Under the pieces are notes generated by a model. The model did not search any database. It saw only the letters and a list, made by a program, of their open reading frames with translations, and was not told where the DNA came from. A stretch of DNA of 64,000 nt from an uncultured bacterium (GTDB lineage: Bacteria > Babelota > Babeliae > Babelales > Vermiphilaceae). Shown here piece by piece: positions 2,866-26,184 of the stretch. A program made the translations under genes and the position numbers. Positions within the stretch are counted from its first letter, which is position 1. Every line of letters starts with the position of its first letter. Location: positions 832,001-896,000 of the forward strand of contig OY970212.1 in assembly GCA_963713925.1 (NCBI GenBank). Direction: 5' to 3'.

Positions 2866-3093
2866 TTATTCATCTTTCTTGAATCGTGGCATCATAACCC
2901 CGTTCACTTCAACTATTTCTGTAAACATTGAAAGCGGCCGGCACCAAATCTGATTTTCCCCATACGTTGGGCAATCGTATAAAGCTTGATATACAACAAA
3001 TAGCGTATCCGGATCTTCACTGAAGCGCGCTACATGTAATACTTTATACATCTTACCTTTATAATGCTTGTAGATCTTGCCTGGTTCAATCAT
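2866..3093 (-). CDS. DUF1653 family protein
   Basis: MIEPGKIYKHYKGKMYKV...VVYQALY...WCRPLSMF...PRF matches the family pattern; start moved to ATG 3093. Confidence 0.85.
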   Translation of the reverse strand: MIEPGKIYKHYKGKMYKVLHVARFSEDPDTLFVVYQALYDCPTYGENQIWCRPLSMFTEIVEVNGVMMPRFKKDE

Positions 3094-3152
3094 ATTTTGT
3101 GTATTGATTTGATTGCTATTTAATCTATCGAGCAACATAATTTACCTCTTCA

Positions 3153-4106
3153 TTAACGTATGAATTTCACTAAACCAATCATCGCATATGCCTCTTCATA
3201 ATTGAATCCATGGCAATCGATGCCAAAATCGCTAAGGATTCTTTTTTGATATTCCGAGATAGGTTTAACGGAAGCATAAGGCTTTGATGATTGAGATTTT
3301 TGAATGTGCACGGTTGATTTTTTAAACTCTTCCATGAGATTTCTAAAATCTGTTATATATCGCCGAGCAATCTCTACAGACTGAACTCTCATCATGTTTT
3401 CATAATTTTTACTAAAAGCCGTTCCTGTTAAATTTGCTGAACCTACCCATGTAATACTAGCATCGATCACTATAAATTTATGGTGCATGCGTACCGCATC
3501 TACATTTGATTCAGCAAACTTGATTCCACTTTTTATAAATTGTTGTTGCAATAGCGCGACGTTCGGTGTCGACCTATCGAAAATAATCTCAATTTCTACA
3601 TTTCTTTTTCTGGCAACCCTTAGGGCCATGATAATATTCGAATGGGTAAGCCAATACGATGCGATGCATATTTTCTCGTTTGCGCTCATCAAATCTTCAT
3701 AGAGGCGCCCAACGCATTCTTGCCATTCATTCGGCATAAAAAACGGCTCAATTGATGAAGGAGGCAATGAAACGAGCCGTTCCCGTCGAGTAAAAAAAGA
3801 ACGAAACATCATCCCTATTACAAGCACAAAAAAACAAACTATGAGCGCAATGCTCCAATCATAGGGAATCTCTTGTGAAGGCATTTGTGGTGAGATAGTT
3901 GAAATAGGCCTCTGCAACGAAACTTGAGCCGGCTGACGCACCATCGCGCCAGTATCAATTTTTTTCGTTGCCTTGGTTGACTCCGATGCAACGGCTTTTA
4001 CTTTTTTTCCGAAGGGCCAAATTCGACTTAAAAAACTTCTTGGCTGATCAGCCAAATTTTGATTCGTAAAAGCGAATAATACCAAAAACAATACTTTTCT
4101 AGTCAC
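3153..4106 (-). CDS. Membrane-anchored phospholipase D/Nuc-like (single HKD) protein
   Basis: Signal-like N-terminus, one TM segment, motif MHHKFIVID...GSANLT...NYEN. Confidence 0.8.
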   Translation of the reverse strand: MTRKVLFLVLFAFTNQNLADQPRSFLSRIWPFGKKVKAVASESTKATKKIDTGAMVRQPAQVSLQRPISTISPQMPSQEIPYDWSIALIVCFFVLVIGMMFRSFFTRRERLVSLPPSSIEPFFMPNEWQECVGRLYEDLMSANEKICIASYWLTHSNIIMALRVARKRNVEIEIIFDRSTPNVALLQQQFIKSGIKFAESNVDAVRMHHKFIVIDASITWVGSANLTGTAFSKNYENMMRVQSVEIARRYITDFRNLMEEFKKSTVHIQKSQSSKPYASVKPISEYQKRILSDFGIDCHGFNYEEAYAMIGLVKFIR

Positions 4107-4309: not shown

Positions 4310-4903
4310 TCATTTTGATTCGATAATGAAAAACCTGTCCATAGTAGATGCAAAATTATTTGTAGCTTCTATCTTTTCAAGATATTCCTGAACATCTTTA
4401 AAAATTACTAAAGGGTAACCTCCTTTTATTAATATTAACTGTAAAAGAATATGTGCAGTTCGACCATTTCCACCTCGAAAAAAATGTAGTACCGTCAATC
4501 GAATATGCGCGAGTACCGCAATTTTAATAACATGCTCATCAGATTTTAAACCCGATATAAAATGATCTATGAATCCATAATCATCTATCATTTTACGAGA
4601 AGGAATACGTATCGGTGGTTTATCACCTTTTAGAATACCGAAACTATCAGACTCAGACCGTAAAACACCGTCACAATCTTCAAGGCTGAGATTAATCTCT
4701 TGAATGTGCTGGAATGTTATCTCTCTTAGAGATAACGACTTGGTCAACTCGCTGATTTTCTGTGTAGCCGCAGAATTGATCATTTTCAATGTGCCATCCG
4801 TCGAAGGATACTGTAATTCACGCACAGAAATTTCGTATTGTGATTTCCGTTTTTTCTCATCAATTTTTTTTAAATTAAAATCGATATCAATCATAGTTTT
4901 CAT
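4310..4903 (-). CDS. Fic-domain protein with a degenerate motif
   Basis: AHIRLTVLHFFRGGNGRTAHILLQLILIKGGYP resembles the Fic core HPFxDGNGRxxR; start uncertain (4903 or 4936). Confidence 0.75.
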   Translation of the reverse strand: MKTMIDIDFNLKKIDEKKRKSQYEISVRELQYPSTDGTLKMINSAATQKISELTKSLSLREITFQHIQEINLSLEDCDGVLRSESDSFGILKGDKPPIRIPSRKMIDDYGFIDHFISGLKSDEHVIKIAVLAHIRLTVLHFFRGGNGRTAHILLQLILIKGGYPLVIFKDVQEYLEKIEATNNFASTMDRFFIIESK

Positions 4904-4984
4904 TGTCCAGTTTTTAAAAATTATTTTGTGCAACAAAAAAGCCCCGAATTACTCGGAGCCTTTTAATAATTTTAATTAAATCCC

Positions 4985-5097
4985 TAGCTAAGCAGTGGCG
5001 GCGCTTGAGCCAGGCGAAGCCGAGGCACCCGAAGGATGACTTGGCGAGGGTTGGGTCCCAAGTGAAGCAAAGCGAAACTTGGGTAAAAAGACTGGCT
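4985..5097. repeat. Intergenic palindromic repeat cluster
   Basis: GC-rich stems including GGGTCCCAAGT...AACTTGGGTAAAA (5053-5088), also seen at 40507, 54020 and 56865. Confidence 0.7.
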
Positions 5098-5202: not shown

Positions 5203-5433
5203 TCAATTTTCTTCATCTCTTAAAGAAGAAAATGTTGTTTCTAAAAAATACCCCTGATAATAACTATGTAGGCGTTCTTTTAAACATTTAAAATGACAAA
5301 AAAAATCTTGTGTAGGCTGATATTTTATCTCTTTGCCATAATTTGCCATGATATTCATGTTACACGGGTCAACATCTGAAGGCTCAATTGCTTGATTGCA
5401 AAAACAACAAGAAAACTTTAGTTCATTTGTCAT
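5203..5433 (-). CDS. Small Cys/His protein (CCFC...FCHFKC), possible metal-binding or orphan immunity protein
   Basis: 76-aa ORF directly downstream of the immunity gene, 3-nt gap. Confidence 0.6.
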   Translation of the reverse strand: MTNELKFSCCFCNQAIEPSDVDPCNMNIMANYGKEIKYQPTQDFFCHFKCLKERLHSYYQGYFLETTFSSLRDEEN

Positions 5434-5436
5434 CCA

Positions 5437-5874
5437 TTATGCCTCGATTTTCAAATCAATTACCCCGACAGTTATATCATCCCCGGGTAATATCTCTATT
5501 ATATATCCTTCTGATGGGTTGAAAATGAATTTATCAAAGGTGACACTTACAACGTAATCATATTGTTGTATTACATCATATATATTTGTCTTTATAGCAG
5601 GGATTGCAGCTGAACCCCACTCTATAAATACGGACGGATCAAAATCATCACCTAAAAATCTCTTCAATGAATCTATTATCATAGTATAATTTGTGCCCAA
5701 ATTCATTTTATGATTAATTTTGTCCCAATCAATTTTCCCCCATTCTGTCATTGGATACAAATCGGTAAAAAGTTGCAATACCCTATCTGATTCTTGCTCA
5801 GGTAGTAGCTCTATTTTTAAAGCTTCAATACACCTTAGAAATGGTGCATTGCGCGTGTGCCTTGTTTGAGACAT
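5437..5874 (-). CDS. CDI-type immunity protein (CdiI NC101-like)
   Basis: FLRCIEAL, YPMTEWGKIDW and IPAIKTNI...KFIFN resemble, from recall, CdiI of E. coli NC101; begins 1 nt after the toxin stop. Confidence 0.7.
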   Translation of the reverse strand: MSQTRHTRNAPFLRCIEALKIELLPEQESDRVLQLFTDLYPMTEWGKIDWDKINHKMNLGTNYTMIIDSLKRFLGDDFDPSVFIEWGSAAIPAIKTNIYDVIQQYDYVVSVTFDKFIFNPSEGYIIEILPGDDITVGVIDLKIEA

Positions 5875-5875
5875 G

Positions 5876-7915
5876 CTATTCCCTTTTGTTTTTATTTAAA
5901 TTCTCAATGGCATTCAAAATGAGCGATAAATATTTATTATCTGTCTGCATAAAAATCGTCTTAGTCATTTCAAGATTAGCACGAGTATTTAAATGTTTTA
6001 TTAAACTTTGCACCGTTGATTCAGTCCCCTCAAATAGAACAGCGTATACATTTCCTTTTACCCCGTTACCTAATCTATAATCTGTGATGTTTATATGTGG
6101 ACCTTTCCCAGGGGCATAGTCGATTCTAAAAGATACATCTCCATCGTGCCAATCGGTTCCTATAATCTTACCTTTAAGCTTACCGAACTTACCGACGTGT
6201 GGAGTAGCCGTATGCGGATCAACCTTACCGATAAGCTCTAAGGCTTTATTTCTTGCTTGCTCATAAGTTTTCATTCTTGGAATAGATTTTTCACGCTTAG
6301 GTATATTTGTATGTGAATCAATAAAAGGAGTCTTTTCGTTCGACAACTTTCCAGCTTTCAGCAACATTCCCTCAGGAGTTGCTAAAAATAATTCCGGTTC
6401 CGCTTGCGGATATTTTTCGATAAACTCGATTGCTTTCATACGAGCTTTACCATAGATTGAATTCAATCCTTTGAGCATTCGGCCTTGAGCATACCAGCCA
6501 ACAGTGACCTGAGTAGCGAGTTCAGCAGCCTGTGCCGCCGAAATTCCTTTTTCAAATTGTGTCAGAAGTGCATCAACAGGCGCCAAATAGGCATCGAGCT
6601 TTTCATATCCAGCCAGCCGATCGTAATAAGATGTAATCGCAATATCCGCTACTGCATAAGCAAGTTTGCACGCTTGATACGCCAATACATATTGTCCGGC
6701 TACAAGGCAAAGTCCCGTATGCAATGGATGAGTTGCCAAATCATACGCAGCATAATACACACCCAGGCATGCCCCTTTTGCCATTGCATGCCCTATATCA
6801 AGAAGCACGAAACAAAAATCGTTGATTGTTGTCGCTTTGTGCGTCAAACCAATTTGGTTAAACTCACGTGACGCATCAACGCAATCCATAAAATCTTTTC
6901 TGTATATATACAGCGAATCAACTGTTTGCAGTCGTGCTGTTCGATCTAAAACATCAATACATTCTTGATGCACCGCTTGCTGGAGTTGGTTGCCATAATG
7001 AGTCGTGAATTGGTTCTGATTATAATTGCATTCGCCGATCAGGCCGATGGAAGGTGCTTCAAGTGTATATTCCAATTGCTTATACTCGGCGCCCGAATTT
7101 TGTGTAGCATTAAGAGCAGCCATTCGCTTCCCAAAATGCTCATTTGATAGTCCATAATGACGGGCAATATCTGATGAATTATTCCACAATAGTGCATCAT
7201 TAGTAATCTGATTCAGACTATTGTAAAAAGTGTTTCTGAGCTTTTCTCGTTCTTCTTCAAGCTTTTTCCGAGCGGCTTCTTCACGCTCTTTTCGCGCTTG
7301 TTCTTCCTTGATTTCTCGATCTCTTTTCTCATGAAACAAGCGTCTGCTTTCTATTTTATCGCACTCTTGTGCTATTGCGTTATGCGCATTCGTCGTTACG
7401 CGTTTTTCGATTTCTTTATTGGAATGTATTAGCTCGTGAAGTGCCTTGACCTTGCTTTCATATCCGGAAAACTGACTAACAGTATCCCGAAATGCTTCAT
7501 ATTCGTACAAATTGATTTGATTGAGTATGTTTTCTTGGTCTTTAAAGCTGATATAAAAATACTTGCTTTCCGTATTGACAAAAAAAGTATATCCACGCTC
7601 AAATGCCCAAAAAACATCAATAGGAAAAGAAGATATTTGGCAACGTAATCGAGCTATTGCGGTATAATAATCTTTTCTGCTCCAATATTTGCATTCATGT
7701 TGTCTTTCAAAAAGAGCCTTATCATGCTCCGCCAACCCAAGCCAATTTCTTTTATTCGACCCAATCCCAAATTGGCTATAAATATCATTGGCGTGTTGAT
7801 TATCGTAACGAGATTTTTCCGGTTTCTCGGGAACAGGTGGTATTTCGGGATTATCGGGATTGTATGAAAAGATGGAACTATAAAAGAATATCGAAAAGAG
7901 AAATGTTATAAACAT
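5876..7915 (-). CDS. Polymorphic toxin: signal peptide, lineage-specific helical carrier and C-terminal BECR-type tRNase
   Basis: C-terminal TYEQARNKAL...GKIIG...DG..SFRIDYAPGKGPHINITDY...FEGTE...LIKHLN resembles CdiA-CT NC101 (recalled); followed by an immunity-like gene. Confidence 0.75.
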   Translation of the reverse strand: MFITFLFSIFFYSSIFSYNPDNPEIPPVPEKPEKSRYDNQHANDIYSQFGIGSNKRNWLGLAEHDKALFERQHECKYWSRKDYYTAIARLRCQISSFPIDVFWAFERGYTFFVNTESKYFYISFKDQENILNQINLYEYEAFRDTVSQFSGYESKVKALHELIHSNKEIEKRVTTNAHNAIAQECDKIESRRLFHEKRDREIKEEQARKEREEAARKKLEEEREKLRNTFYNSLNQITNDALLWNNSSDIARHYGLSNEHFGKRMAALNATQNSGAEYKQLEYTLEAPSIGLIGECNYNQNQFTTHYGNQLQQAVHQECIDVLDRTARLQTVDSLYIYRKDFMDCVDASREFNQIGLTHKATTINDFCFVLLDIGHAMAKGACLGVYYAAYDLATHPLHTGLCLVAGQYVLAYQACKLAYAVADIAITSYYDRLAGYEKLDAYLAPVDALLTQFEKGISAAQAAELATQVTVGWYAQGRMLKGLNSIYGKARMKAIEFIEKYPQAEPELFLATPEGMLLKAGKLSNEKTPFIDSHTNIPKREKSIPRMKTYEQARNKALELIGKVDPHTATPHVGKFGKLKGKIIGTDWHDGDVSFRIDYAPGKGPHINITDYRLGNGVKGNVYAVLFEGTESTVQSLIKHLNTRANLEMTKTIFMQTDNKYLSLILNAIENLNKNKRE

Positions 7916-8073: not shown

Positions 8074-8148
8074 TGGCTGGGGTGGAAGGATTCGAACCTC
8101 CGGATGCCGGTACCAAAAACCGGTGCCTTACCACTTGGCGACACCCCA
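8074..8148 (-). tRNA. tRNA-Gln (UUG) with encoded CCA
   Basis: Reverse complement TGGGGTGTCGCCAAGTGGTAAGGCACCGGTTTTTGGTACCGGCATCCGGAGGTTCGAATCCTTCCACCCCAGCCA folds as a cloverleaf with anticodon TTG. Confidence 0.97.
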
Positions 8149-25603: not shown

Positions 25604-25984
25604 TTAGCCTAAGGCATCCGCCATCGTTATCGTAAATGTACCTGTATCATCTTGTACGATTGTTACGTATCTCGGTCTTTTTTCACAAACAATCTTCCAT
25701 TGCTTCAACAAGTCGACCAATTGCCCGATAGAGCATTCCATTCCTCCATCATATGGATCATCCATATGCTTACGCCCCATTATTATCCGATTTCCCAGCT
25801 TCTCAAGAATCGTGTAATTGCTCCGCATGGTATGAATTTCGGGATTGAGAAGACTCGAAATGGCATTATCAGGAGATAACCCCCAATCATCATTCAGAAA
25901 AAAATAGACTAAATTCAATCCAGCGTCTCCTGAATCCTTAGAATCGTAGCCTAATACTGATTGTTTTAAATATAAAATTTTCAT
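25604..25984 (-). CDS. Hypothetical small protein, possibly orphan immunity-like
   Basis: ~126-aa soluble ORF without a signal peptide. Confidence 0.55.
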   Translation of the reverse strand: MKILYLKQSVLGYDSKDSGDAGLNLVYFFLNDDWGLSPDNAISSLLNPEIHTMRSNYTILEKLGNRIIMGRKHMDDPYDGGMECSIGQLVDLLKQWKIVCEKRPRYVTIVQDDTGTFTITMADALG

Positions 25985-26184
25985 TGCAAATTCCCGACTC
26001 AAATCCATTAAAAAAAAGAATTGTCGAGATAAAGATGAGTCGCATGCTTTCTCCTTGTATGTATTTATTGCCCAAAATATAACTCGGTTTGAATGAAATG
26101 TCTTTTTCTTGAAACACCGAAATTGAAGTTGTTAGAGTAAACATCGTGCGATCTTAAAATCGCTTTTTTCAGTGAGGGTAAGTT

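Follow-up and report, generated by a model that had tools for sequence, protein, structure and literature searches.

Lineage-specific domains placed behind a signal peptide (MafB-N, Microscilla-N and APD1/2) have been described in polymorphic toxins, and more of them were expected (Zhang 2012, PMC3482391; this and all other published statements are given as found in the accessible parts of the sources). The toxin domain closest to the one described below is that of the contact-dependent inhibition (CDI) pair CdiA-CT/CdiI from E. coli A0 34/86, solved as PDB 5T86 and, according to a preprint on Salmonella Rhs2, not accompanied by a mechanistic publication (10.64898/2026.05.10.723254). We have analysed a stretch of 64,000 nucleotides (the window; contig OY970212.1, positions 832,001 to 896,000) from an uncultured bacterium of the phylum Babelota. 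Babelota are obligate intracellular parasites of protists with genomes of 1-1.5 Mb. The genome that bears the window, G000, is a single contig of 1.32 Mb (40.8% G+C, 95.75% complete); L and P numbers below denote carrier loci and stored carrier proteins, respectively. In the list of open reading frames (ORFs), three genes are packed closely on the minus strand of the window, encoding proteins of 679 aa, 145 aa (after a gap of 1 nt) and 76 aa (after a gap of 3 nt). Judged from their sequences, the first two very probably form a polymorphic toxin, in which a C-terminal toxin domain (the tip) follows a carrier, and its immunity gene. The carrier is a new phylum-wide version of an already known polymorphic toxin plan. 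The features of the locus are the following.

5876..7915, minus strand: full-length gene of the very probable polymorphic toxin, 679 aa, with export signal, variable N-terminal region, conserved carrier core, linker and tip (ORF; nine family members in G000)
7865..7915, minus strand: probable Sec signal peptide at the hydrophobic N-terminus, residues 1-17 (hydropathy; no basic n-region, no lipobox)
7190..7864, minus strand: N-terminal variable part, residues 18-242, predicted to contain a long helix at about 175-232 (column conservation, model)
6356..7189, minus strand: conserved, mainly helical carrier core, residues 243-520 (alignments, conservation, model)
6368..6379, minus strand: TPEG junction motif, residues 513-516 (junction alignments; paralog similarity stops just past the motif)
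5984..6289, minus strand: toxin tip, residues 543-644, 5T86 family, with predicted active site R597, D599, H607 and N609 (phmmer, Foldseek)
5437..5874, minus strand: probable cognate immunity gene, 145 aa, CdiI A0-like (PF24172)
5203..5433, minus strand: likely orphan immunity gene, 76 aa, Cys/His-rich (phmmer to genes behind the T4 tip)

Identity of the tip and its partner

The C-terminal region of the 679-aa protein matched chain A of 5T86 (the CdiA-CT) with an E-value of 3e-17 in phmmer, and nothing else of note. Comparison of the tip with CDI structures, which an earlier note on this DNA had proposed, led to the same protein: a model of the tip (12 sequences, pLDDT 90.5) matched 5T86_A in Foldseek with an E-value of 1.1e-9, and among 48,161 chains 5T86_A gave a Z of 16.2 (rmsd 2.0, 101 aligned residues, 41% identity), the next row having a Z of 5.2. 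The 145-aa partner was assigned to PF24172, the A0-type CdiI family (85.1 bits, E 6.5e-24, cut-off 33.2), and a PF24172 partner also follows the 5T86-type tip in L004 and L012. Because both matches are this strong, the pair is not a chance resemblance. The earlier note had called these two genes, 1 nt apart, a polymorphic toxin with a CDI-type tip and an immunity gene, and in this it was right. Both belong, as new members, to the structurally solved, uncharacterised 5T86 family.

The same note had equated the pair with that of E. coli NC101, and this does not hold. The only significant match in the PDB by both sequence and structure was 5T86; at E<=1 the tip matched 5T86 and nitrophorin noise only and the partner matched nothing, while the NC101 structure 5I4Q was not among the matches listed in the structure searches, where 5T86 alone stood out. 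Since the partner belongs to the 5T86-type PF24172 family and CdiI-NC101 is all-helical (PMC9086364), we have corrected the NC101 label. The YxiD tRNase was also considered as a relative of the tip and rejected; the accessible text of PMC12700104 mentions neither 5T86 nor EF-Tu.

With the CDI pair of A0 34/86 the locus shares the tip, the partner family and the toxin-immunity gene order. It differs in its carrier of 679 aa, on which Pfam and NCBIfam found no two-partner secretion (TPS) domain, haemagglutinin repeats or VENN-type pre-toxin region, and for which the model is helical rather than filamentous. It also differs in that no cdiB adjoins the locus, and in that tip homologs on this carrier mostly add a C-terminal helix pair. 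The protein has no PAAR, Rhs or LXG Pfam domain that would mark an effector of a type VI or type VII secretion system (T6SS, T7SS), nor an FHA domain, and PF06255 (MafB-N) had no match at any G000 carrier, with one match of E 0.13 elsewhere; the absence of these hallmarks had been noticed earlier and is confirmed. The tip moves between delivery systems, being found in 18 plasmid records, the best of which places it on a Bacillus LXG toxin (46% identity).

The carrier family and exchange of its tips

The carrier had been described as unfamiliar and lineage-specific, and indeed the 679-aa protein matched no Pfam family (E<=0.1) and no NCBIfam family. Searching Pfam with 26 members of the family gave nothing convincing; among the 25 listed of 37 weak families, each was matched by one member. 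The best E-value of a sequence profile against the PDB was 0.05, the carrier model gave nothing at E<=0.001 in Foldseek against PDB and viral structures, and a wide VIA structural search gave a best Z of 6.1 and none >=8, single domains being possibly missed with a 505-residue model. Among the weak rows were two pore-formers, YaxB (Z 5.5) and AhlC (Z 5.4), a likeness that may come from a common helical arrangement only. Two leads from the Atlas, PT-TG (0.86) and MafB (0.84, through 95 shared features only), lay below 0.9 and were not confirmed by family searches. The carrier core is thus without a named family or a clear fold match.

Residues 18-242 were poorly conserved (0.07-0.27) and residues 243-520 better (0.32-0.57), and residues 18-135 matched only 6 of the 152 stored carrier proteins; the variable region is a candidate receptor-binding or stalk part. 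Besides the motifs GNQLQQ..H.E and G...G..A..D...HP, the core contains a Gly-rich segment of marginal hydrophobicity. Modelled from 102 sequences, residues 18-522 were almost all helical (pLDDT 83.6, pTM 0.72). Towards the tip, LATPEG begins at residue 511 and YEQARN at residue 551.

Like MafB-N of Neisseria and Microscilla-N (PMC3482391), the carrier combines a probable signal peptide, a lineage-restricted domain, a variable nuclease tip and an immunity gene, occurs as several full-length paralogs per genome and bears the tips Ntox17, Ntox21, Ntox35 and EndoU. Unlike in those families, the conserved part adjoins the tip while the N-terminal region varies, and the carrier spans an order or phylum whose members are obligate intracellular bacteria, not one genus or species. 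It differs further from MafB in that there is no MafB match at the carriers and no conserved MafA-like upstream gene, the window locus having a tRNA upstream. With APD1/APD2 of Amoebophilus it shares a protist-associated intracellular bacterium and a constant N-domain with variable C-domains used in parallel; in APD proteins a lipobox is present and the ubiquitin or GTPase domains are directed at the host (PMC3482391), whereas we found tips of antibacterial nuclease types, with partner genes, and lipobox-like text in just 1 of 107 carriers. Ca. Bodocaedibacter also has polymorphic toxin-antitoxin loci in a protist endosymbiont (PMC8163844), but it belongs to the Holosporales and has a T6SS, orphan cassettes and three loci in one genome; the likeness of the loci is one of description only.

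G000 contains nine carriers (profile E 1e-146 to 5e-17), all intact ORFs with an adjacent small gene, and TP[ED]G is present in seven of them. They bear seven tip classes, three of which are named in Pfam (Ntox17, Ntox21 and EndoU), so that relatives of the N-terminal part with other tips, sought on the suggestion of the earlier note, do exist. A profile of 26 cores matched 114 of the 261 phylum genomes, including 85 of the 189 high-quality ones. This search covered genomes of the phylum only, hence a restriction to Babelota is not claimed. The titles of records with the carrier name Ca. Babeliales or Ca. Dependentiae, apart from two that name Pseudomonadota and are probably mislabelled, their match tables being identical to those of same-family relatives. 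With the queries used, the carrier was not found in plasmids, phages or viral contigs, and genome contigs scanned with a single sequence gave no match.

The same profile matched 1,060 protein clusters at 50% identity, of which the best 150 were examined. A tip was present in 129 of the 152 stored carrier proteins, with T.[ED]G at 105 of the 129 junctions, and the tips fell into 33 clusters, at least four of them truncated ends. The carrier bears about 30 tip types (colicin D, EndoU, Ntox17/21/35, E3-like, barnase-like and many unnamed). When 32 representatives were scanned in Pfam, eight had a tip match (EndoU, Ntox17, Ntox21, Ntox35 twice, Cytotoxic, Ribonuclease and, below the cut-off, DUF4258), one had a HINT match and 23 had none; Colicin_D was found in another scan.

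Complete ends were available for 49 carriers, of which 42 have an adjacent downstream gene by a distance rule, giving 861 pairs. Tip and partner class were both shared by 52 pairs and the tip only by 11, while no pair shared the partner only; in 1000 shuffles the mean of joint sharing was 3.7 and the maximum 10. These counts include kin, which are not independent, as well as a mis-clustered locus (L050, whose tip is lumped into T5) and a class, T3, that lumps two Ntox21 subtypes. The tip class predicts the downstream gene.

Several observations indicate that tips have been exchanged repeatedly at the TPEG junction. Carriers that are 80-85% identical bear different tips, and DNA similarity between the window carrier and its closest paralog stops at codon 520. 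In a tree, the window carrier grouped with the paralog L018 (core 71% identical, other tip) and with P0003 (69%, T4 tip) with a support of 100. The 5T86-type tip required eight changes for nine rows in a quick tree, and seven for eight after dropping 15 of the 48 rows. A single clade of carriers of this tip was rejected by the approximately unbiased test (p 1.4e-4, 33 of 48 rows). Both carrier trees were quick ones, and the 15 rows left out of the test were long or distant branches and L050.

The third gene of the locus (5203-5433), overlooked in the earlier note, bears on this exchange. It lies 3 nt behind the immunity gene in the same orientation, and phmmer linked it (E 3e-17 to 2e-11) to genes that follow the T4 (DUF4258-like) tip in L003, L007, L021 and L029; a search of G000 for a T4 tip found none. 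Most simply, the 5T86-type tip and its partner would have replaced a T4 tip, stranding the old partner; the direction is inferred from three rows, and a later gain of the orphan is possible. Other partner genes without their own tip nearby are found in G000 at 94411 and 1238844, and divergent partner paralogs form arrays of five and four behind single toxins (G000:C1:173965-175697 and 1047639-1049914). Within the window, positions 25607-26131 (minus strand) hold a stand-alone homolog of the EndoU-tip partner class (E 3e-12) with no Pfam match.

Other arrangements of the carrier were also seen. Within about 10 kb, one relative (L002, L019, L027, L033 and L034) has at least four carriers of full length, which are about 80% identical and bear colicin D-like and other tips. 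P0023, P0095, P0114 and P0133 are long proteins with two tandem carrier cores. In L022:214-2784, L030:157-2775 and P0096 the carrier is fused behind an N-terminal PT-HINT domain, and a T9-type tip lies inside P0096 (2,093 aa) as well, which suggests a polytoxin. A second class of toxins in G000 has a hydrophobic N-terminus, PT-HINT, a class T9 tip and paired partner genes. The HINT domain was confirmed for the copy at 74358, T9 tips were seen on 74358, 555949 and 1206566, and the copy near 1206000 is split over two frames. A protein without a match to the carrier profile (G000:C1:545732-547321) bears a restriction-endonuclease-like tip (class T12). The copies of the second class are located as follows.

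G000:C1 4568-6169, 37369-39213, 74358-75998, 555949-557718 and 1205991-1207150: second toxin class

Export, target and activity

We propose, with a probability of about 0.6, that the carrier leaves the cell by Sec and then by type II secretion or vesicles, binds its target with the N-terminal region, and passes the tip with the help of the core through the membrane of a rival bacterium in a shared protist, where the tip cleaves RNA. Sec would export the protein through its hydrophobic N-terminus, and release would be through the type II secretion system, for which the two secretins could serve, or in outer-membrane vesicles. The variable region may then bind a target surface, and the helical core, with its marginally hydrophobic Gly-rich hairpin, may insert in the target membrane. 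The tip, perhaps released by cleavage near TPEG, would cut RNA of the translation machinery through D599 and H607, with EF-Tu as a possible cofactor by analogy. Inside the producer, the acidic CdiI-type protein would cover the basic active site, while orphan and arrayed immunity genes may guard against the tips of relatives.

G000 encodes SecY, two secretins and two Omp85 proteins, and secretins, two in G000, have been reported in all seven TM6 genomes (PMC4776705). In Chromulinavorax, Sec is used, 44% of proteins have signal peptides and vesicles are apparently shed in the food vacuole (PMC6561590). Neither Hcp nor WXG100 was found in G000, at 95.75% completeness and with positive controls. 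A search of G000 with PF03865 (ShlB/cdiB) gave no match, but its control also matched nowhere, hence this search was uninformative. As for the target, protists often host several bacterial associates (PMC12644861). The tips named in Pfam belong to antibacterial nuclease families (Colicin_D, Ntox17, Ntox21, Ntox35, EndoU, Cytotoxic and Ribonuclease), and the host-directed nuclease effector of an endosymbiont (Tox-REase-8) has been described without immunity genes (Zhang 2012, PMC3482391). The immunity pattern favours bacteria over a host organelle as the target.

A number of observations weigh against this proposal. No conserved gene was found upstream of the carriers (2 similar pairs among 23 upstream genes), and 147 of the 261 phylum genomes have no carrier match. 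A signal peptide had been claimed earlier; residues 1-17 are hydrophobic as claimed, but without a basic n-region the signal is atypical and merely suggested, and the proxy for N-terminal hydrophobicity, met by 65 of 75 full-length carriers, is weak, as 274 of 488 long ORFs of G000 meet it too (56% background). Of the helical and hydrophobic segments described before, the helices are seen in the model, but the internal hydrophobic stretch peaks at 1.45 on the Kyte-Doolittle scale over 19 residues, below a typical transmembrane helix, and pLDDT falls below 50 at residues 383-404 within the Gly-rich segment, where the model is therefore poor. A carrier-end plus tip cassette, as known from CDI and Rhs loci, was not found in G000, which has just one 34-aa tip fragment. 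As 23 of the 32 scanned carriers had no Pfam match, some tips could be host-directed, and a host-directed nuclease that folds before export would need an immunity gene too.

The last two points touch the alternative that the carriers are host-directed effectors, whose tips hit mitochondrial or cytosolic translation of the protist or addict the host, the partners merely protecting the producer. We consider this unlikely, although it has its attractions: Chromulinavorax replicates while wrapped by a mitochondrion of its host, shedding vesicles and degrading the nucleus (PMC6561590), APD proteins of Amoebophilus have the same constant-N/variable-C plan with the host as target (PMC3482391), host addiction was proposed for the polymorphic toxin systems of the Bodo endosymbiont (PMC8163844), and full-length paralogs suggest parallel deployment. 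Yet no ubiquitin-system, ankyrin or GTPase domain was present among the Pfam-named C-terminal tips, the orphan-type partner genes, like the arrays with as many as five divergent paralogs, are in keeping with a defence against incoming variants, and SRLase1, a look-alike of the tip, was inactive in a eukaryotic translation system (10.64898/2026.09.18.752725).

With regard to activity, the tip is likely an RNase. All 12 tip homologs have D599, K604, H607 and N609, and 11 of the 12 have R597. In the model, strands 53-60 and 64-71 (tip numbering) bear R56/D58 and H66/N68, so that the predicted fold agrees with the BECR-like definition, in which a beta-meander comes after a helix and the catalytic residues lie where the beta3-like strand ends and the beta4-like strand starts. 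D599 aligns with D209 of 5T86, which corresponds to D192 of Rhs2, a residue required for toxicity (10.64898/2026.05.10.723254). Salmonella Rhs2 (Ntox47) has 5T86 as its top structural homolog (Z 7.7), its partner SciX has the 5T86 CdiI, and Rhs2 binds EF-Tu (same preprint). SRLase1, with R70, D72, H97 and N99, needs EF-Tu and cuts the sarcin-ricin loop of 23S rRNA while sparing tRNA (10.64898/2026.09.18.752725). Rhs2 and SRLase1, both T6SS-delivered and EF-Tu-binding, have the R-x-D/H-x-N constellation of the tip, a likeness in motif spacing alone; the D-to-H loop is of 25 residues in SRLase1 versus 8 in the tip. The site resembles those of 'BECR-like' RNases; the substrate may be tRNA or rRNA, and EF-Tu is a plausible cofactor by analogy. 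The EF-Tu-dependent tRNase announced in the earlier note is unproven, as 5T86 lacks a mechanistic publication and one of the two characterised look-alikes, SRLase1, cuts 23S rRNA instead of tRNA. A complex prediction for tip residues 542-646 with G000 EF-Tu (score 0.01, mark 0.32) was evidence neither way.

Alternatively, the genes could be a toxin-immunity pair whose tip, an enzyme or binder of a single VOC (glyoxalase-like) fold, acts on another target. Indeed, 5T86_A was classed as a VOC-fold domain and named 'CdiA-VOC' (Li et al. 2022, PMC9424270), and after 5T86 and one designed protein the best structural rows were glyoxalase/bleomycin-binding proteins (Z about 4), with no canonical BECR nuclease in the top 50; this, too, counts against RNA cleavage. 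We nevertheless find the VOC reading improbable. These rows reached a Z of only 4.3 or less, and the R-x-D/H-x-N spacing of the tip, as a motif, matches that of SRLase1, a proven RNase. Moreover, the lack of canonical BECR nucleases fits the behaviour of the BECR-like superfamily, which includes Ntox47 and from which canonical BECR folds were not retrieved by structure search (10.64898/2026.08.28.747851).

Least probable of all is that these are surface-anchored or periplasmic modules of kin recognition or self-limitation among sister cells, or decaying selfish cassettes, with no interspecies role: the patchy distribution (114 of 261 genomes), the lower G+C of the tip (0.36), partner (0.35) and orphan gene (0.30) than of the genome (0.41) and the broken carrier copies in L010, L014 and G012 would agree with it, but all nine G000 copies are intact with an adjacent small gene, the catalytic-type residues of the tip are invariant, and the high tip diversity implies selection for novelty.

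Surroundings of the locus and significance

A tRNA gene precedes the toxin gene.

8074..8148, minus strand: tRNA-Gln(TTG), 159 nt upstream of the toxin gene (ARAGORN)

The closest paralog sits just behind a tRNA cluster in G000, but such adjacency is not general, as only two of the nine G000 carrier copies lie within 300 nt of a tRNA. At 4979-5058 the window contains 80 bp that recur with 91% identity at G000:601160-601239, within the tRNA cluster that precedes this paralog, and at 5053-5090 a 38-bp hairpin resembling a repetitive extragenic palindrome, with about 19 more copies in the genome at 81-95% identity, several of them near tRNA genes. Downstream on the strand of the toxin (minus) lie a Fic-domain gene (4310-4936), a phospholipase D-like, nuclease-type gene (3153-4106) and a DUF1653 gene (2866-3138), which possibly form a wider conflict island with the toxin locus.

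In the searchable literature, mostly main texts, we found no account of the carrier family in Babelota; the alignments of Zhang 2012 and preprint datasets could list the carrier or the tip. The word 'toxin' does not occur in the accessible text of two Babelota genome papers (PMC6561590 and PMC4776705), and a 2025 survey, as far as accessible, described the Babelota genomes it covered as devoid of toxin-antitoxin systems (PMC12644861). By contrast, G000 alone has nine copies of the toxin carrier, together with many partner genes. The family offers a new carrier for the study of entry mechanisms, about 30 tips, mostly unnamed in Pfam, catalogued with their matching immunity genes, and additional 5T86-family members with which the activity of that family could be worked out.

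The recurrence of the carrier across the phylum with dozens of swapped tips suggests that Babelota likely fight rival bacteria in shared host cells. Only tentatively would we extend this to a phylum-wide antibacterial arsenal, in which a helical carrier of new fold, its variable region serving for targeting and its core for membrane insertion, exported by Sec and type II secretion or vesicles, would bring about 30 kinds of nuclease, mostly unnamed, into co-infecting bacteria, the present tip being an EF-Tu-assisted RNase of translation. If true, rivals would be killed to monopolise the host cell. On the narrower reading already, if it holds, bacterial competition inside protists would be a strong selective force even on highly reduced parasites.

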